Origin: Macrostomum lignano
Lineage: Eukaryota
Length of the DNA stretch: 64,000 nt
Direction of reading: 5' to 3'
NCBI GenBank assembly: GCA_002269645.1
Contig: NIVC01000416.1
Location: 372,001-436,000 of the forward strand
The first letter of the stretch is position 1. Every line of letters starts with the position of its first letter. A program made the translations under genes and the position numbers. Below the pieces are notes generated by a model that worked only from the letters and a program-made list of their open reading frames with translations, was not told the origin of the DNA and did not search any database. Below are positions 55,037-64,000 of this stretch, one piece after another.

Positions 55037-55069
55037 GTGAGTATTTGGGATTCTATCTTTTGATAGTTG

Positions 55070-55290
55070 TTTGTGTGTCTTCTACCTGACTTGTTTGTGT
55101 GTCTTCTACCTGACTTGTTTGTGTGTCTTCTACCTGACTAGTTTGTGTGTTCTACCTGACTTGTTTGTGTGTCTTCTACCTGACTTGTTTGTGTGTCTTC
55201 TACCTGACTTGCTTGTGTGTCTTCTACCTGACTTGCTTGTGTGTCTTCTACCTGACTTGTTTGTGTGTCTTCTACCTGACTTGTTTGTGT
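55070..55290. repeat. 24-bp minisatellite (intron 3 of the unidentified gene)
   Basis: GTGTGTCTTCTACCTGACTTGTTT tandem. Confidence 0.93.
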
Positions 55291-55639
55291 GTCTTCTACT
55301 ATCTACTTCTACTATCTACTTCTACTATCTACTATCTAAAACTATCGAACATTCTTATATATGTTCGATATATAAGAACTACATATCGTGCAGATTGTTG
55401 TTGATTTTGGAGGTGAGGTGGGTGTCAGAGCCAATGCAAATTCAACGCCTATCTAAATACATTAGACCGATTCTAATTGGTCCAGAGTCATTATGTGAGA
55501 CATTTATGCTCTCATGTAAAATCTATACATGTAATCAGTGTACACTGTATCGTACAGAAGCGACGACCAGTACAATATAGTACGCATAATTAGCGCTTCA
55601 CCGTTGTTGTACGTAGAAACGCGCGCGCCCCCATCCCCA

Positions 55640-55900
55640 CACAATGCAGCATTGGTGTACGCAGAATTAACTGTCCATATTAACTGTCCATATACCAAAA
55701 ATTGGCAGAATTAGAGCGCCCACCCACCCCATAACTGTCCATATTATTACTTGTCCATATTTACTGTCCATCCCAAAATTGGTGTACGCGCAGAATTGTA
55801 GCGTCCGCCCACCCCATAACTGTCCATATTATTACTTGTCCATATTTACTGTCCATATATACACCCAAAATTGGTGTACGCACAGAATTGTCTGTGACCC
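55640..55900. repeat. Subterminal repeat array, probably within the Polinton TIR
   Basis: About 8 copies of TGTCCAT(AT), several AAAATTGG(TGTACGC), and a duplicated block starting CCCACCCCATAACTGTCCATATTATTAC. Confidence 0.65.
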
Positions 55901-56213
55901 CCACAAAATTGGCGGTCCCACGCGGAGGCATGATGAGTCAGTCAGCCAGTAAATCGCCGCTGTCCACCCCTCTGCCCTGCGCTGGCCGCTATAGCTACCT
56001 GCAGCAGTGTTACGCAACAACCCGGTCGAGCCACAATGCTAACTTTATAGCCAGACACGTCATCAAGGTCTGAAAACACAAACTTCTATGCATGAAATAT
56101 TCTCGTTTAACAAGATGCCAAACCAACTTTGTTCGGACAGCAAACTATAAATAAGAAAATTTGGATTCTCGGCCGTTTATCTAAATTCACCAAGTTCAAT
56201 TAACAACCCAATC

Positions 56214-56410
56214 ATGTGGAAAACGCAGTGTTTGACAAGCAATTTTTGGTTGCCAAAGCACAAGAGGATCAGACCGACAAAGCATGAACTGCCAAGAACT
56301 TTGAGCAAGGATTTCAACACACCTCCAACGCCAGCACCGAAAATAGGTACAAATCTCTTTTTTTTTCTGGAATCCTCGATAACGACAACACCGTAAAAAG
56401 CTCGTTAACA
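56214..56410 (+). pseudogene. Internally deleted copy of the adjacent Polinton accessory gene
   Basis: NFWLPKHKRIRPTKHELPRTLSKDFNTPPTPAP matches NFWLPKHKRNRPPKLELPATWSKDFSTPPTPAP at about 56930-57030; frameshifted. Confidence 0.6.
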
Positions 56411-56458
56411 TGTAATTAAAACAAAAACTTATTGAGACTCTCGGGTATATAAGCACCA
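56411..56458 (+). promoter_or_regulatory. Duplicated promoter block with TATA box, copy 1
   Basis: 48 bp identical to 57101-57148; TATATAAG at 56446-56453, upstream of ATG 56574. Confidence 0.65.
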
Positions 56459-56573
56459 ACCCGGGGCACCAAGCACCCGTACCTGCAAATTTTTCTCGGA
56501 TTCTCGGCAGTTTTTCAAGCTCGAATAACATCCCCACCACTAGTGCGAACAACGCAGCAGTGCTTGACAAGAA

Positions 56574-57107
56574 ATGAGCTGGATTTCCAGAGACTACCCC
56601 CTATTATCGAACGAGGAAAAAGACGAATACGAGGCCTTGAAAAAATCTGCTGACTGGTTGTGCATTTGCCACAGCAAACCGATTTCCGAGCGATTAGTCA
56701 CCTTCAATGCCAAGGTCGAGGAAATTGATCAAGGCCCCTACGACAGCCAAGACTACGCAGCAGCCAGGATAAATGAGCAACTACGGGACAAAATGAGATT
56801 CAAAGCTGATTTAGCACGAATGGAAGATTACTGGCTCCGATACTAAGTGAAGAGCATCGCCAAAAAATACGTTTTCGGAACCATCAAGATCTGTATAATC
56901 CGTCGTGGGAGGAGCAACAAAAGATTTGGAATTTTTGGCTGCCAAAGCACAAGAGGAACAGGCCGCCAAAGCTTGAACTACCAGCAACTTGGAGCAAGGA
57001 TTTCAGCACACCTCCAACGCCAGCACCCGAAAATAGGAACAAAAGGTTCATTTTTTCCGGAATCCTCGATAACGACAACTCTGTAAAAAGCTCGTTATCG
57101 TGTAATT
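56574..57107 (+). CDS. Polinton accessory protein of unknown function, probably split by a frameshift
   Basis: ORF 56574-56846 (90 aa); an overlapping ATG-less open frame 56810-57107 continues SEEHRQKIRFRNHQDLYNPSWEEQQKIWNFWLPK...SSLSC*. Confidence 0.55.
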
Positions 57108-57148
57108 AAAACAAAAACTTATTGAGACTCTCGGGTATATAAGCACCA
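57101..57148 (+). promoter_or_regulatory. Duplicated promoter block with TATA box, copy 2
   Basis: TATATAAG at 57136-57143, 69 bp upstream of ATG 57205. Confidence 0.65.
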
Positions 57149-57204
57149 GCCCGGAGCATCTGCAAGCGCCCGTACCTGCAAATTTTTCTAAACAGACAAG
57201 AGAC

Positions 57205-57915
57205 ATGGAGACAGTGCAAGACTTCAACTGCGTCAAGCGAGAGCTGCTGGCACTCAAACCGCGAGGTCCGAGCTTCAACGGGGTTGAAACGTTTGACATT
57301 GAATATGACGAACAGGGACCTCTCTACTTGGCCAATGCGGTCCCTGTTTTGATCGTCAAGGGCGTGCGTACTGACAACGAAGGTCGCGAATTCATCATCA
57401 TTGCACAAAAACACATTGAAAGCTGCATACCCTACACTTTCAACACTGTGGCGGAGCACCTTTCCAGCGAAAGTCTAGCTCTGCTGGGCTACAACCCAGC
57501 GTTTGGAGGTGACAGTGCAGCGTTTGGGCTGGCTCACGACTTTAAAATGTACGACCAAAACGGACTGCCTGTAGAGGATTACAAAAACAAGAGCGGCTAC
57601 TACAGGATTCTGTTTACTCTCGACACGGCCGTGATTCGAGACGCTGTTTTGACCGCAATGCCAAAAATTCAACAGCTACAGTTTGTCGAAGAAGCCAAAC
57701 AGGCATTCGATCGTTGCTATTGGACGCCACCTCCAAAAATCAAGGTAGGCGCCAAGAAAGTAAGCAAGAAAGCAAAGAAACCACCAAAGCTTGTCAAGGA
57801 GAAGCAGCCAAAGGTGCCTAAAAATCAGGCCAGAAAGCGACAGCATCAATCGAAACTAGTAGCAGCCAACGAATCAAAGAAGCGGTCGAAAGCCCCAAGA
57901 AGGATACGAAAGTAA
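57205..57915 (+). CDS. Putative OB-fold ssDNA-binding protein with Lys/Arg-rich C-terminal tail
   Basis: Intact 236-aa ORF; FKMYDQNGLPV...GYYRILFTLDTAVI...MPKIQQLQFVE resembles the C-terminal strands of T7 gp2.5-like/NCLDV SSBs (by eye). Confidence 0.55.
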   Translation: METVQDFNCVKRELLALKPRGPSFNGVETFDIEYDEQGPLYLANAVPVLIVKGVRTDNEGREFIIIAQKHIESCIPYTFNTVAEHLSSESLALLGYNPAFGGDSAAFGLAHDFKMYDQNGLPVEDYKNKSGYYRILFTLDTAVIRDAVLTAMPKIQQLQFVEEAKQAFDRCYWTPPPKIKVGAKKVSKKAKKPPKLVKEKQPKVPKNQARKRQHQSKLVAANESKKRSKAPRRIRK

Positions 57916-58413
57916 AAACTGCCGAAAAATCTACTTGCAGAACGTCGAGTGTGTGAACCGAGTGTTTTGCGCGAAATGGAGCCGCATGCCTGACTTGGAC
58001 TGGGCGAGCGCACGGACATTTCGCAGACCAAGAGCTCTTATCAATTTGCGAATAGGAAATGTACAATCAACTTTTTTCAGCGTTCTTTGTCTGCAATTGT
58101 ATTCGGTTGTCGCTCCATCAACCAAGTTTTGCGTCTTTTTCCTCAATGTAAACCAATTTCTGTTGTTGTTACCACTAGTACTTACCGCGCTGAAGTAGAC
58201 AGATGGCCAAACTTTTTCCAAATTGCATACTCCGGGTCCCGCTGGGTGAAGTGGGAGTGTGAAGTTTTCAATGGAATAGTAATAAAGTCTCCATTTCGCA
58301 ATGCTAAATGTTTATTATGCGGAAAGAATGGCCGCCTTGTTTTCCTTGGAATACGAAACTTTAAAGAGCTCTGTCAAATGTACGATCATGTGACTAGCGT
58401 TTTGCATGTCTAA
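57916..58413 (+). pseudogene. Divergent TATA-binding protein (TBP)-like gene with one in-frame TGA at 57991-57993
   Basis: Two TBP repeats: [18 protein letters not shown]...[25 protein letters not shown] and [53 protein letters not shown], compared with TBP [52 protein letters not shown]. Confidence 0.7.
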
Positions 58414-58553
58414 TCCATGTAGCTGTTGCGTAACTTTACTGCTTTACCACTGTACCGAATTTGTATGTACGTACAAGCTGCTATGAAATTGTCTATAAAT
58501 ATATTGTGCATAAATTGCAGTGCACTGCAACCAACATCTTTTTGCTAAACAAA

Positions 58554-58910
58554 ATGACAAACGGAATCTCCAGACTATGTTCTTGTCGCGGCGAGCTCGC
58601 AGAGCTCGCCAAAGCCCGTCCCGCTCTTCGGCGGGCCATTATTCGAGGTGCAGGCAAGGAACTGATTCATTGTCTCTGTGAATTGAGTCACAACGTGCTC
58701 CGGGGAAATATCGATCTTTCTCCGAAACAGTATCTGCGATTAAAGCGATACAGAAGATCGTTGCGTGAATTGGCAGACACAAAATTGTCTATAAATAGGA
58801 AGAAGAATATGCTTCTCTCGAATCCTCAAGTCGGTGGTTTTCTACCCATACTTGCATCTGTTGCTGCACCGCTAATATCAAGCCTGTTTGGCGGACTACT
58901 TGGTCGCTAA
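58554..58910 (+). CDS. Adintovirus GasderminX-like virion protein with C-terminal amphipathic helix
   Basis: LIHCLCELSHNVLRGNIDLSPKQYLRLKRYRRSLRELA...QVGGFLPILASVAAPLISSLFG is the conserved Polinton pattern; ATG 58554 follows TATAAATA at 58494. Confidence 0.8.
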   Translation: MTNGISRLCSCRGELAELAKARPALRRAIIRGAGKELIHCLCELSHNVLRGNIDLSPKQYLRLKRYRRSLRELADTKLSINRKKNMLLSNPQVGGFLPILASVAAPLISSLFGGLLGR

Positions 58911-58911
58911 A

Positions 58912-59562
58912 ATGAATAAATACGTTGTTGTACCAGAAGAAGAATTTAATAGACTAAGTCAAGGCGCACCCCGAGAAATTGCATCCAAAACAGAATATGA
59001 AAAACTCATTGAATACAACACTCAACTCCAAAATAAACTAAGTCAGATCAAGCAAAAGAAGAGTAATCGTTTTCCTGAACGACAACAACGTGTTTGGGAC
59101 ATGCTGACAGAAAGATACCCAAATTTGGAGTACAACAAGTCGTGGGAAATTGTATTTGATGGAAAAACCTGGCCAGGAAGCAATATTTTCGATCTATTGA
59201 AGGAGATTACATCGAATGAAAGGCGCGACCGCCCAAGCCCAAAATATAGTACCGCTTTTTGGGCCCTGGCCGAAGAGGCAGATATTGCAAAAGCTCTACT
59301 AGGACGACGCCAACAAGAAGAAGTCAGTGTGAAAAAAGAAGTCGGCACGGATCCGGATCGAGACGATTTTTTAGTCGAGCAAGCAATTGGAACTAATGAT
59401 TTCTACAACGACTTCCACAAAGACCAAGCCAGTGGCCTGAATGAAATTAAAAAATATGAAGATCGTGGCAGCAATGCCTACAGGCATGCTTCATACCAAC
59501 TTCGCGAACCAAAGAGGCGGCAGAAACCAGCAGTAAAATACGAGACGTTAAAAAAACTATAA
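58912..59562 (+). CDS. Conserved Polinton protein (GSNIxDL motif)
   Basis: 216 aa from ATG 58912; WEIVFDGKTWPGSNIFDLL matches the motif of the gene that usually follows the GasderminX-like gene. Confidence 0.7.
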   Translation: MNKYVVVPEEEFNRLSQGAPREIASKTEYEKLIEYNTQLQNKLSQIKQKKSNRFPERQQRVWDMLTERYPNLEYNKSWEIVFDGKTWPGSNIFDLLKEITSNERRDRPSPKYSTAFWALAEEADIAKALLGRRQQEEVSVKKEVGTDPDRDDFLVEQAIGTNDFYNDFHKDQASGLNEIKKYEDRGSNAYRHASYQLREPKRRQKPAVKYETLKKL

Positions 59563-59602: not shown

Positions 59603-59869
59603 ATGGGTGCCGCAGCTGTAACTTCAAAGCTTTGCTCAGACAAACCGTCTGTGGAGTTCAAGTGTAATTACTCATGCTGTGCATCGAATCTAGTTGCGAA
59701 TGAGGGTGAAAACCGCTCTTCGGAGAGTGTACGAACAGGGGGACGCCGCTTTTACAAATGCTGCCCGTGTATATCAGGAGGCCAAACGGCTGGTCCCCTC
59801 CCTGACGAGACGCCAAACAGACGAATGGCTGAAGACCCAATCGAGCTACACCCGGCACAAGAGGGTTAA
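59603..59869 (+). CDS. Possible small Cys-rich (MG...C...CxxSCC) protein overlapping the integrase start
   Basis: ATG 45 bp after TATAAATA at 59558; MGAAAVTSKLCSDKPSVEFKCNYSCC. Confidence 0.4.
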   Translation: MGAAAVTSKLCSDKPSVEFKCNYSCCASNLVANEGENRSSESVRTGGRRFYKCCPCISGGQTAGPLPDETPNRRMAEDPIELHPAQEG

Positions 59870-60767
59870 AAGAAAATTCCAAACCGGAAAAGTAATGTCA
59901 GGAGGCTTCATGGAAACTGTGCAAGCGGATTTGATGGACATGTCACGATACGAACAATGGAATGATGGTCATCGATATATTCTAGTTGCAATTGACGTGC
60001 TTAGTAAATTGGCTTTTTGTCAGTCAATAAAATTGAAAAGCGACACTCCAAAGGCTTTTGAAAGCATGATCAAAGACTTCCCCATTAAGCCTTTATATCT
60101 ACACGTTGATCGAGGTACCGAGTTTTATAACAATCGCATGCAGAACTTACTGAAAGCCCATAATATCAAAATGTACAGTACAAACTCTGTATACAAGGCA
60201 AATATGGCTGAAAGGCTGATTAGGACTCTCCGAAAACGTTTAGCTCGCTACTTTGAGCATAAAAACACGTGGCGTTGGATCGACTATTTGCCAATATTGG
60301 TTAAAAGTTACAACAACACAGTACACTCTACTATTGATATGAAACCTTCGAGTGTCGGTCTGCACAATCAAAAAGAATTGTGGGAAAAGCTCTACAAGGA
60401 TCCTGAATATGATGAACCAGTTTACCAAAAAGGGGACTTTGTCAGAATTTCAAAATCTCGTCGAGCCTTTGACAAGGAAGCATACGATATGTACAGCGAA
60501 GAAGTTTACGTTGTGTCTCAAGTATGCCCGGGACCGCCTCATTTTTATCGCATTTCCGACCTATCTGGAGAACAAATCGAGGGTCGATTCTACTATAATG
60601 AACTTTCAAAGACGGTTCGACCGGACCGCTTTGTTATAGACAAAATTCTGCGTCGCAATGTCATCATCAATGGTGTCGCTCATCATTTCGTTAGTTGGCG
60701 CGGCTATCCCGAGTCGTTCAATGCATTTGTACCAGTTGAGGAAGTTATAAATATAAGACAAGGATGA
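59700..60767 (+). CDS. Retroviral-type (rve) integrase with C-terminal chromodomain
   Basis: DDE motifs VQADLMDM, IDVLSK, LHVDRGTEF, KANMAERLIRTLR; chromodomain FVIDKIL...HFVSWRGYPESFNAFVP. First ATG is at 59700; the ORF track starts at TTG 59694. Confidence 0.95.
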   Translation: MRVKTALRRVYEQGDAAFTNAARVYQEAKRLVPSLTRRQTDEWLKTQSSYTRHKRVKRKFQTGKVMSGGFMETVQADLMDMSRYEQWNDGHRYILVAIDVLSKLAFCQSIKLKSDTPKAFESMIKDFPIKPLYLHVDRGTEFYNNRMQNLLKAHNIKMYSTNSVYKANMAERLIRTLRKRLARYFEHKNTWRWIDYLPILVKSYNNTVHSTIDMKPSSVGLHNQKELWEKLYKDPEYDEPVYQKGDFVRISKSRRAFDKEAYDMYSEEVYVVSQVCPGPPHFYRISDLSGEQIEGRFYYNELSKTVRPDRFVIDKILRRNVIINGVAHHFVSWRGYPESFNAFVPVEEVINIRQG

Positions 60768-60801: not shown

Positions 60802-61955
60802 ATGCATCTATTCCTACCTAGCAATGCGTGCGTTGAGCACTATCCTGAGAATAATTCGGCACATTATAGCATTAATTTGCCCGACACCCTCCACTTTCCG
60901 AATCATGAAGTCTGCATCGAACGGATCTACTTTTGTAAAGAATTCAAAACCGTCCCCGATAATCGAATGGTTGATGTCCTGACCAACGCTCCGAGGATGA
61001 AGTGATTGACATTGAGGTGAGAGAAAAACCCGCCTCCACGTATAAACAGTTTGCGTCGGTTTCTCTCGCCGCGGGGCTATCAACAGCCAACGAAGTGGTT
61101 GATGCAATCATCGCCGATCTAAAATATGAGCAAGACGATAATGCGATGATTTGCATTGAGCGTTCACAGGAAGGCCAAATTTCAATTGTGAACAAATCAT
61201 GGTATGGTGCGAACATTAGGCTGTCCAGTAATGTGCGTAGCATGTTTAAAAAGGTTGATGACGCTGGAAATAAATCAAATATCGAAGTAACGACTTTTTT
61301 ATTAAACCCAAGAAATTCGTTAGTATTCGCTATAGAATTGGAGTCCTCCTCCTCCATAGAGAGTCCGATGACTCTAACGTTTGAAAAGAGTGTCTGGCCT
61401 TCTAGAACGTCACTGCGGATTGCTAAAGGATTCTACCGCACGCCTGACGAGCTCTTAAATTATGTTAATGGAGCGCTTTGGAGCGTCGTTTCAAAGCTCC
61501 CAATAAGTCCAGCGACGAGAGTGGATGCATTCCACTACAACCCTTTTCTGAACCGGTGTGAGTACAAACCCATTGAAAACATTTTATTCGACATTGGAGA
61601 GCTTGCTGCCATTCTCGGCTTTCGCGAAGATGTTTTCAATGAAACTCCAAAGACCGCTAAACGACCAATCGATTTAACAAATGGTGTACAAACTATGTAC
61701 ATCTATTCAAATATTGTCGACTCTGCCATTGTTGGAGACGTCAAAGTCCCCCTGCTTGGGGCAATTCCTTTGAATGAAAAGGTATACGGCGAACGAGAGT
61801 ACTACGAGTTTGTCAATCCATCCTACTTACCGTTGGTGAAACACCCATTCAAAACCATTGAGGTGCAAATCTGTGACGATATGGGCAAGTTAATGGATCG
61901 GATTCTTCGAGGCAAAACTGTTTTATCGATCAACATTCGTGAAATTAAGCTATAA
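60802..61955 (+). pseudogene. Minor capsid protein (penton), split by a frameshift at about 60975-61002
   Basis: N-terminus MHLFLPSNACVEHYPENNSAHYSINLP (60802-61005) and C-terminus DLTNGVQTMYIYSNIVDSAIVGDVKVPLL...TIEVQICDDMG (61002-61955) are the two conserved ends of one penton but lie in different frames. Confidence 0.85.
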
Positions 61956-61998: not shown

Positions 61999-62367
61999 AT
62001 GCCTTCAATCTTGATCGGAGGAGCTTTACCGGTATTTTCCGGTGCACAGCGCGGCAACGGCCTGTTTGGCAGCATTGCCCGATTTGCCCTGCCAATTTTA
62101 AAGAGTTTTGGCAAAAATATTCTTCGCCACGGAACACGAGCCCTAGCTACAACAGTTAGCGACACACTCGATCAAGGCGGGAACTTGAAAGAAGCGGCAT
62201 TGCGTAACTCTGTCCAGGCAGCTAAAGATGCTTTCAAGGACACAGTCGCACAACGAGGTAGCGGCAGACAAAGACGAAGAAAGATGACTAACAAAAAAAC
62301 GAGAAAAAGACTGCAGCATTCTGATATTTTCGACTCTATAAATAAAAAAACCCGTGCCAATAACTGA
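61999..62367 (+). CDS. Basic core protein (pVII-like / 'Cupiennin'-type Polinton protein)
   Basis: QRGNGLFGSIARFALPILK...QRGSGRQRRRK...SDIF pattern; 122 aa. Confidence 0.8.
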   Translation: MPSILIGGALPVFSGAQRGNGLFGSIARFALPILKSFGKNILRHGTRALATTVSDTLDQGGNLKEAALRNSVQAAKDAFKDTVAQRGSGRQRRRKMTNKKTRKRLQHSDIFDSINKKTRANN

Positions 62368-62410: not shown

Positions 62411-63694
62411 ATGACTGAGTGCCTGTGTACAAAGTCGGAATTCGAGCTTTTTGCTCCTCGCGCACACCAAATTGCTGCAATTAGCGCCACCACTGAAGAA
62501 GTTCACCCTGTTGCCAGTGTTGAAAATGCCAGCGTGGTCGAATTTAGGATTGTTGGTGGTGAGACGTTTATCGATCTTAACGACATTGACCTCGAGATTA
62601 AGGCCCGCGTTAAGCAGTCTAATGGTACAAATCTTGCTGCTGATTCGAATGTTGCGCCGGTCAATTACGTCCTTGAAAGCATGTTTAAAAACGTCACGTT
62701 GACAATCAACGGGACACACGTAGAGTCGAGCAATAACAACCACGCTTACAAGGCCTATATTCTCACGTGTTTGAATTACGGACACGATTCAAAAACTAAT
62801 CAACTGAGAATGATGGGCTACGCAAAGGACGCTGGAGGTCAAATGGCTGTGGTTGGAAATCCTGGCTTTGTAGCCCGCAAGGCGATGGCGGCAAACTCAC
62901 GCACCTTTCACCTTTATGGACCTCTTAGTTTAGACTTTTTTGTTACCAACGACCGAATGCTACTGCCATACACTGATATGGTAATTACGCTGACCATGCA
63001 CAATTCCGGCTTCGTTCTGGAAAACCACGCGGACGGGGTTGATGCGCGGCTAGTACTCGAGAGTGCCAAACTACATGTGCGCCGCGTCAAGGCAAACCCC
63101 CAATTGGCATTGGAGATTGAAGAACAACTAGGCAAACAGAATGCAATCTATCCGATTGAGCGACTTGTTGTGCACAATACTTCAGTGGCTGGCGGTGTTC
63201 GGGACATGTCAATCAATAATATATTTCCTGAACAAAAGCCTAAACTAGTGGTTGTTGGCATGGTGAACAGCGGCGCATACAACGGTGTGGCTACACATAA
63301 CCCGTTTAATTTTGAACCGTTTGGTGCCGACAGTGTCGCTCTGTATAAGGACGGAGTCAGTCTGTGTGGACAACCGTTTACTCCTCGATTCGGTGTTCAT
63401 AACTATGCTCGCGAGTATGCCATGCTACTAAAAAGCCTAGGAAAGATGAATCGGGACCTGGATATTGACGTATCATATTCCGACTATGGAGCTGGCTACT
63501 GCTTCTTCGCCTGGAATCTCATGCCCGACATGGAGCTGGGCGGGCATAGCATGCCTCGCGAGCGAGGGAATCTGACGCTACAAATAAAGTTTTCTGCTGC
63601 CTTGGCCGCAGGAATCAACGTGTTGGTGTTTGGCTACTTTGACAATACTGTGCAAATCACTCGCGGTCATCAGGTTATTCTAGACTGCGTGTAG
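62411..63694 (+). CDS. Major capsid protein (double jelly-roll, hexon-like)
   Basis: Intact 427 aa; CTKSEFELF, FIDLNDIDL, NNHAYKAYILTCLNYG, PFNFEPF, YGAGYCFFAWNLMPD, GNLTLQIKFSAAL. Confidence 0.93.
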   Translation: MTECLCTKSEFELFAPRAHQIAAISATTEEVHPVASVENASVVEFRIVGGETFIDLNDIDLEIKARVKQSNGTNLAADSNVAPVNYVLESMFKNVTLTINGTHVESSNNNHAYKAYILTCLNYGHDSKTNQLRMMGYAKDAGGQMAVVGNPGFVARKAMAANSRTFHLYGPLSLDFFVTNDRMLLPYTDMVITLTMHNSGFVLENHADGVDARLVLESAKLHVRRVKANPQLALEIEEQLGKQNAIYPIERLVVHNTSVAGGVRDMSINNIFPEQKPKLVVVGMVNSGAYNGVATHNPFNFEPFGADSVALYKDGVSLCGQPFTPRFGVHNYAREYAMLLKSLGKMNRDLDIDVSYSDYGAGYCFFAWNLMPDMELGGHSMPRERGNLTLQIKFSAALAAGINVLVFGYFDNTVQITRGHQVILDCV

Positions 63695-63744: not shown

Positions 63745-64000
63745 ATGAATAGTCTAGATATATTAGAACGTCTAATACTACCTGTCCCTGTTTGAGTAAC
63801 ACCAGTTGACAGGATTCCGCAGCCTGTTTATCCTGCTGCATACGTGATTAACTTTGACACTGGCAATCTACCAGGCACTCACTGGGCTTTAATTTGTCTT
63901 CATGCCGATGAGAGCGTGACATTTTTTGACCCCTTGTGTATCGATCCTGTGCCAGATTTATTAAAGTTGTGGATCACAAAGTATGTCCCTGTGGAGGTGG
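63745..64000 (+). pseudogene. Adenain-like cysteine protease, 5' part, with in-frame TGA at 63793-63795
   Basis: MNSLDILERLILPVPV*VTPVDRIPQPVYPAAYVINFDTGNLPGTHWALICLHADESVTFFDPL; catalytic His (GTHW) and FFDP present; runs off the window. Confidence 0.85.

Follow-up and report, generated by a model that had tools for sequence, protein, structure and literature searches.

Positions 57916–58413 of the DNA analysed here (the window, a 64 000 nt stretch of Macrostomum lignano contig NIVC01000416.1) raise the question of whether a mobile element in an animal genome encodes its own TATA-binding protein (TBP) and, if so, how such a gene might be started and used. A preliminary description had read a divergent TBP from this frame, interrupted by a nonsense mutation, within a Polinton-type element. 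At this locus we find a copy, broken by a frame change, of a functional gene from a multicopy, PolB-less Polinton-like element. The divergent viral TBP is real, was mis-modelled in the preliminary description, and sits inside a wider picture of four lineages.

The window holds a frame-broken copy of a conserved gene

The quoted translation of 57916–58413 was letter-for-letter right, with a single TGA at 57991–57993, and both TBP repeats had been aligned along it. Compared with a TBP alignment, with X at the TGA, this frame matched over residues 111–164 only (hhalign probability 50, E 1.6e-4), and its first 25 codons gave no match to TBP (probability 0.1). The C-terminal alignment (WECEVFNG..., NGRLVFLG...) was therefore upheld, and the N-terminal one was not.

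A genome search with the part of the frame beyond the TGA returned 107 matches, which were pieces, not copies. In the best sisters the match began no earlier than residue 21 and lay in open frames of 183–198 codons. The 19 best-scoring loci were taken as the sister set; 15 of them are open from the equivalent of 57941 to the C-terminal stop, and the other four are broken elsewhere. In the open sisters, the first lobe (…LQNVECVN…ALINLRIG) corresponds to window frame 2 (57863–58198) and runs unbroken into KCTINFF, so that the break in the window copy is a frame change at approximately 58056–58058 and not the TGA. The TGA itself is present in all 19 best-scoring sisters, 15 of them open, which identifies it as an off-frame triplet and disposes of the CGA>TGA lesion that had been proposed. 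The expectation that sister copies would be open proved right for most of them, though in another N-terminal frame. The TBP-like domain thus lies in two parts on the + strand, the first at 57941–58056 in window frame 2, continuous with the rest in the 15 open sisters, and the remainder at 58057–58413 in window frame 1, which carries an invariant E-x-E and the EVF motif.

In the sister TBP frame, dN/dS between two subfamilies was 0.07, with synonymous sites near saturation, whilst the earlier frame over the same N-terminal DNA gave 1.49 and contained stops. Judged from these substitution rates, the TBP gene is under purifying selection, its first part included. The break near 58057 was absent from contigs of runs X1 and X17, and in run X11 the TBP stretch was uncovered past 57976. 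The break may be an assembly error or the mark of a decayed copy, which look alike at 58057 because run contigs pool all copies. Single-base length differences between the window and run contigs were observed at 56558, 56824, 57892, 58056, 60990 and 61975; these may likewise be assembly errors or decay of the window copy.

The encoded protein is predicted to be a compact TBP saddle

Sequence searches of Pfam and the PDB with the earlier frame, pieces of the window and the family-1 frame gave no match. Subfamily 2, which is 77% identical to family 1, passed the cut-off of the Pfam TBP model PF00352 (23.1 against 22.9). Five outside relatives of the TBP frame were found at 38–67% identity, none in viral contigs or metagenome contigs; P0003 passed the same cut-off (24.6), and P0004 and P0006–8 scored below it. 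A search for the context of the relatives yielded three giant-virus-like loci, two of which were taken as tree outgroups. A four-sequence family profile matched 35 PDB sequences, all of them TBP. No longer or fused TBP form scored in what was a weak search, and the ESM Atlas held no usable match for the TBP frame or for ORF2, the gene upstream.

The structure of a natural, unbroken sister frame was modelled from an alignment of seven family sequences that included no cellular TBP. The model had a pLDDT of 79, and Foldseek recovered the TBP saddle fold (best E 7e-10, TMq up to 0.79); among the PDB matches listed with E≤0.001, all were TBP or TBP complexes (44 counted). VIA gave Z 14.3 and rmsd 3.3 over 158 residues covering both lobes, the next non-TBP reaching Z 7.2. 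In BFVD, the model matched viral TBPs (best E 1e-8; B263R homologue 4e-5). With these structural matches and those of the profiles, the claim that the element encodes a divergent TBP-fold protein was borne out: on the model, the protein is a two-lobed TBP saddle, compact and divergent.

Four intercalating Phe and two central Asn have established roles in TBP. With the alignment anchored on host TBP, two intercalating Phe were absent, the first Asn aligned and the second was Thr. Two intercalating Phe had been described as apparently kept; that of EVF aligned with the host C-lobe Phe in all seven family rows, and that of INFF, invariant in the four rows of alignment A3, was placed one column off the host Phe by MAFFT and is uncertain. 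Since two Phe are lost, one is uncertain and Asn has become Thr, DNA binding may be altered or lost. The C-lobe E-x-E was invariant (13/13 rows), with D-x-E in a fourth lineage (6/6 rows); in TBP these positions contact TFIIB (PMC7221094). The kept acidic pair would be consistent with recruitment of the host Pol II machinery.

Cellular TBPs (PF00352; eukaryotic TBP/TRF2 and archaeal TBP) share with the element protein the two-lobed saddle over 158 residues, the E-x-E, the C-lobe Phe and the first Asn. Unlike them, the element TBP resides in a mobile element and appears to be joined by splicing to a second gene; it is 15–20% identical to them, has a shorter first lobe, and shows the Phe losses and the Asn-to-Thr change described above. 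The viral TBP fold is shared with the TBP-like proteins that large dsDNA viruses (NCLDV) encode, among them ASFV B263R and poxvirus homologues (PMC7221094). Most of these viruses encode a TFIIB as well, and their TBPs have diverged at the two acidic positions (PMC7221094), whereas the element TBP keeps both acids and the element showed neither a TFIIB nor a polymerase gene. The TBP mimic of beta/gamma-herpesviruses (KSHV ORF24; PMC12529657) is alike in outline, a viral TBP associated with host Pol II and TA-rich late promoters. ORF24 is large and binds Pol II directly, in a model incompatible with TFIIB binding (PMC12529657), whereas the element protein appears from its sequence to be a minimal domain in which the TFIIB contact residues are retained.

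The gene belongs to a PolB-less Polinton-like element

The unit that hosts the gene is Polinton-like, approximately 10.2 kb long and without PolB. Its left terminal inverted repeat (TIR) lies at 55378–55962 (587 bp, 98.6% identical between arms), and sisters L031 and L032 start at the same point. The right TIR lies outside the window (L021:2011–2596, ~65011–65596 in window numbering). No 6-bp target-site duplication was seen at the BLAST-called ends of the window copy, where the flanks differ. One tandem repeat flanks the element on both sides (window 55060–55300 and L021:4899–5611).

All genes of the element are on one strand (+). A tandem duplication with a period of ~690 nt (56241–57189) contains a small ORF starting at 56574, which is broken in the window copy, is 170 aa long in L031 and L032, and had no family match above cut-off. 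Subfamily 2 has a Fic-domain gene (L039:1103–1906, Pfam 52.9 bits) in place of this family-1 duplication. ORF2 follows, its conserved 180-codon part (57205–57744) ending ...YWTPPPKIK at a candidate splice donor. Beyond the TBP domain are two small genes at 58554–58910 and 58912–59562, which we take to be the PZ and PW genes typical of Polintons; the PZ-like protein matched (E 5e-9) an ORF in C460, an element of the third lineage, and had no Pfam match above cut-off. A retroviral-type integrase with a weak chromodomain occupies 59700–60767 (Pfam rve 34.5 bits, cut-off 32.6; Chromo E 0.055).

The virion block comprises a putative minor capsid gene at 60802–61955 (broken), a core-like gene at 61999–62367, a presumed major capsid gene at 62411–63694 and, at 63745–64000, a gene broken near its start that we take to encode a maturation protease, with what is presumably a packaging ATPase and then the right TIR beyond the window. 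The capsid and core ORFs had no library match, so these labels rest on position and motifs. The major capsid candidate matched ORFs in the TBP-bearing C2126 (E 4e-44) and the PolB-bearing C2285 (1e-10), and the virion-block ORFs match ORFs of other TBP-bearing elements, C2285 included. Starting at the left TIR, two sisters are colinear with the window element as far as the minor capsid gene.

Polintons/Mavericks and adintoviruses (PMC8502044) likewise have TIRs, an rve integrase with chromodomain and a virion gene block, but the window element has no PolB ORF between its TIRs. The Polinton-type assignment thus held for the long TIRs and the retroviral-type integrase, both features of autonomous Polintons, and failed for PolB; because the protein-primed PolB is absent, we class the element as PolB-less Polinton-like and not as an autonomous Polinton. 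The genome contains 119 PolB matches, and the element probably relies on the PolB-bearing elements found there. No ORF was long enough for an RNA polymerase subunit (longest ~430 aa), and the element ORFs gave no Pfam match to TFIIB, in a library that also missed the family-1 TBP. In Starrett et al. 2021, TBP appears as a figure label (PMC8502044); beyond this label we found no analysis of a Polinton TBP in the open-access literature covered.

Four element-borne TBP lineages

A Pfam TBP search of the genome gave 150 scored matches from 330 candidates. Twelve of these rows correspond to host TBP and to a gene that we take to be TRF2-like. Among the remaining matches, stretches around 17 contigs were surveyed, and we observed four element-borne TBP lineages in the genome, two of which pair with distinct upstream boxes (TATAAATA and TTAAGAA).

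One lineage adjoins PolB, which was Pfam-checked in L053 and located by coordinates on seven contigs. Its PolB-bearing Polintons (L053:2327–2896, L057:5902–6465 and relatives) carry a clear TBP with a Pfam score of 83 bits and its own ATG. A PC4-like gene of this lineage (L052:4872–5531, Pfam 31.8 bits) lies behind a canonical TATA box and a GC box. The third lineage (L071:4388–4981 and L090/L091; Pfam 70 bits) has its own ATG behind TATAAAAG, and its TBP adjoins integrase, capsid-like, ATPase and PC4-like genes. By eye, a retrotransposon integrase-like fragment lies inside one such element (L071:2637–3642). The fourth lineage (L083:4242–4856; L096–L125) was missed by Pfam, has strong splice signals and lies beside PolB in C2285; its profile placed TBPs first against the PDB (35/37 rows, best E 3e-9). 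No TBP-like frame was present at PolB loci C2506, C173, C2757 and C491, four of the seven regions scanned, some of them incomplete, and TBP is therefore not found in every PolB element.

A tree of 20 rows was built, with four rows dropped from and five added to an earlier tree. The window lineage and the fourth lineage fell on one side of a branch with 99/99 support, and host TBP, TRF2 and two giant-virus TBPs grouped together (99/99), apart from all element TBPs, in a tree with long branches and few outgroups (the two NCLDV rows, with no archaeal or other-eukaryote TBP). A clade of the window lineage with host TBP was rejected (p-AU 5.6e-8), ruling out the recent host TBP retrocopy that had been considered as an alternative; on this phylogeny, the window-lineage TBP is not a recent host derivative. 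The idea that the element is a Polinton–NCLDV intermediate was not supported, as no RNA polymerase gene was seen in it, PolB is absent, and the two giant-virus TBPs group with host TBP. Database entries for one TBP lineage are labelled as host proteins, and surveys of flatworm TBP paralogues may for this reason count viral genes.

Candidate splice signals at the start of the TBP gene

At 35 of the 36 loci listed, no in-frame Met lies between the TBP acceptor and the stop that precedes it, and the remaining locus is an in-frame fusion; in subfamily 2 the first Met occurs only near the end of the domain. ORF2 is 74% identical between the subfamilies, with DNA homology ending at 57749; it had no Pfam, NCBIfam or Atlas match, and its predicted fold was poor (pLDDT 31). 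Both subfamilies have AAG/GTAGG where ORF2 homology ends and TTGCAG/AAC where TBP starts (the slash marks the splice point), both in phase 0. These ends delimit a candidate alternative intron at 57745–57940 (+). Its length is 196–200 nt in one subfamily against 66–67 nt in the second and follows no constant frame; if retained, the intron supplies ORF2 with its basic tail and stop codon.

The ends of the candidate intron are kept though synonymous sites are near saturation between the subfamilies. The acceptor of the window lineage has nearly no pyrimidine tract, however, its TTG-CAG also codes for the TBP motif L-Q, and the donor GTAGG deviates from the Macrostomum donor motif GT[G/A]AG (PMC8629364). 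Taken alone, the conserved ends in the window's lineage make a weak case.

The signals are stronger in the sister (fourth) lineage, which was surveyed in six subfamilies, five of them 35–41% identical to the query. Directly before the domain, 28 of 30 loci have a pyrimidine tract with a phase-0 YAG, the other two being one base off; one subfamily has an in-frame TAG stop as its acceptor, and another an in-frame Met inside the tract. A phase-0 GT[AG]AG donor follows P-x-x-K-x-L in the upstream gene at all seven loci examined, a context that echoes ...PPPKIK/GTAGG in the window lineage. Homology between ORF2 and the upstream gene of the sister lineage was unsupported (probabilities 1.8 and 0.4). 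The fourth lineage's upstream gene appears to be two-exon itself, with an acidic tail (L083:4242–4856; L096–L125). Judged by its splice signals, the layout of an upstream-gene donor and a TBP-exon acceptor is settled for the sister lineage, and alternative cis-splicing is likely in both lineages.

No spliced joint 57744/57941 was present among contigs from three runs that were tentatively taken for RNA; these contigs cross the interval unspliced, drop rare forms and may be DNA. A search for a processed copy with the exon junction gave two exact 16-mer matches, both in unrelated DNA.

Distinct boxes precede element genes in two lineages

A TATATAAG box at 57136–57143 (+), 69 nt before the ORF2 ATG, is the sole TATA-type box from 56454 to the TBP exon, with none between it and that exon. 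A TATAAATA box precedes the gene after TBP (58494–58501, +), and further copies occur at 56146, 58790, 59558, 60746, 61951 and 62337, all on the sense strand and 48–142 nt ahead of gene starts. In the element, 7 copies were observed against 0.20 expected, with 0 antisense, and five copies were present in the examined part of subfamily 2. The top 7-mer of the element is ATAAATA.

TTAAGAA was enriched in two PolB-bearing subfamilies with another TBP (9 against 0.89 expected and 8 against 0.82), and over four related regions of the PolB-bearing lineage in all it occurred 9, 8, 5 and 6 times against 0.3–0.9 expected. In this lineage TTAAGAA, as YTTAAGAA, precedes most structural genes and TBP. Neither TATAAATA nor TTAAGAA has sense-strand copies in the lineage of the other, and each box is the top 7-mer of its own element; after correction the enrichment is borderline (P 0.016–0.073). 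There was no clear box in the fourth lineage and no consistent motif in the third. TATAAATA is a canonical TATA box, legible to host TBP as well, and the box alone would therefore not require the viral TBP. The TAAG of the second box recalls baculovirus late promoters.

A model for the function of the element TBP

The best reading of these data is that the element TBP is a viral factor for promoter recognition that acts together with host TFIIB and Pol II. We propose, at slightly better than even confidence, that TBP is produced by alternative cis-splicing from ORF2, binds the element's own boxes and recruits host TFIIB and Pol II. The TBP exon, which lacks both a promoter box and a start codon, would be reached from the donor inside ORF2, the likely first exon of the TBP-bearing mRNA. 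The unspliced message would yield ORF2 with its basic tail, and the spliced message, as suggested by the splice signals conserved in the window and sister lineages, an ORF2–TBP fusion of ~337 residues. The protein would most likely bind the sense-strand TA-rich boxes ahead of the integrase and virion genes. TBP and TFIIB are a textbook pair, and the kept E-x-E stirrup would most likely recruit host TFIIB and Pol II. By analogy, TBP might act as an early-to-late switch, as the beta/gamma-herpesvirus mimic does by another route.

It is unlikely, in our estimation, that the protein is instead a decoy or repressor which titrates host TFIIB or modulates host genes, leaving host TBP to read TATAAATA. 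The loss of two Phe and one Asn beside an unchanging E-x-E, and the canonical boxes of the window's lineage, would fit such a role, but in the PolB-bearing lineage aromatic residues are retained at three aligned positions and the paired box is non-canonical, and purifying selection extends across the whole domain.

The main rival to cis-splicing is trans-splicing, in which a host leader ending in AUG would be joined to the acceptor and TBP made alone, without ORF2; we regard it as quite unlikely. The genome contains 30 exact copies of the leader end with its donor (…TGCATG/GTAAG) against 0 for the control, the phase-0 acceptor fits the motif [T/C]TNCAG (PMC8629364), and leader-supplied AUGs are known in flatworms (PMC9851317). 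However, trans-splicing is favoured by an unpaired acceptor (PMC8629364), whereas here conserved in-phase donors lie upstream in the window and sister lineages. No loose end at 57941 occurred among the contig ends listed, and the product would miss the residues ahead of the Asn of the first strand. The leader copies (L072, L073 and 28 other places) are spread over eight contigs, many ~11 kb apart.

A role in replication or packaging, with the ORF2-fused TBP binding AT-rich termini or single-stranded DNA and taking no part in transcription, seems very unlikely. The absence of PolB from the element speaks for it, as does a possible resemblance, judged by eye, of ORF2 and the sister lineage's upstream gene to OB-fold single-strand binding proteins; the upstream exon of the sister lineage found no Pfam or PDB support for this idea. 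PolB-bearing elements also carry TBP, in two lineages with its own ATG, and the TFIIB contact pair is kept, both of which argue against it.

We consider it very unlikely that TBP is translated without splicing, from a non-AUG start (TTG) or by ribosomal frameshifting from ORF2. One subfamily-2 copy (L025) has ORF2 and TBP in a single frame, relative P0006 was called from the position of that Leu, and unspliced contigs exist. Against this, the ORF2–TBP frame relation varies among copies (interval mod 3 = 0, 1 or 2), which disfavours a programmed frameshift, and in the sister lineage the acceptor can itself be a stop codon. Finally, the fold, profiles, selection and tree already refute the view that the frame is a retrocopy of host TBP, whether dead or recent, or resembles TBP by chance. 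The lack of sequence matches to window pieces and the family-1 frame might be cited for this view, and the 17% identity to host TBP opposes it.

Implications for animal Polinton-like viruses

Our reading of the element TBP as a promoter-recognition factor suggests that these elements steer the host transcription machinery onto their own genes. More broadly, and only tentatively, animal Polinton-like viruses could run a late programme of their own, with a TBP in each lineage matched to its box (TATAAATA or TTAAGAA), docking to TFIIB, and a splice switch in one old branch. A splice-controlled TBP fusion, if true, would explain why ORF callers miss such genes. The several natural TBP/box pairs present in one animal host permit swap tests on reporters, and an element-borne TBP with lineage-matched boxes would offer a concrete and testable answer to the question of how Polintons time and activate their capsid genes in an animal genome.
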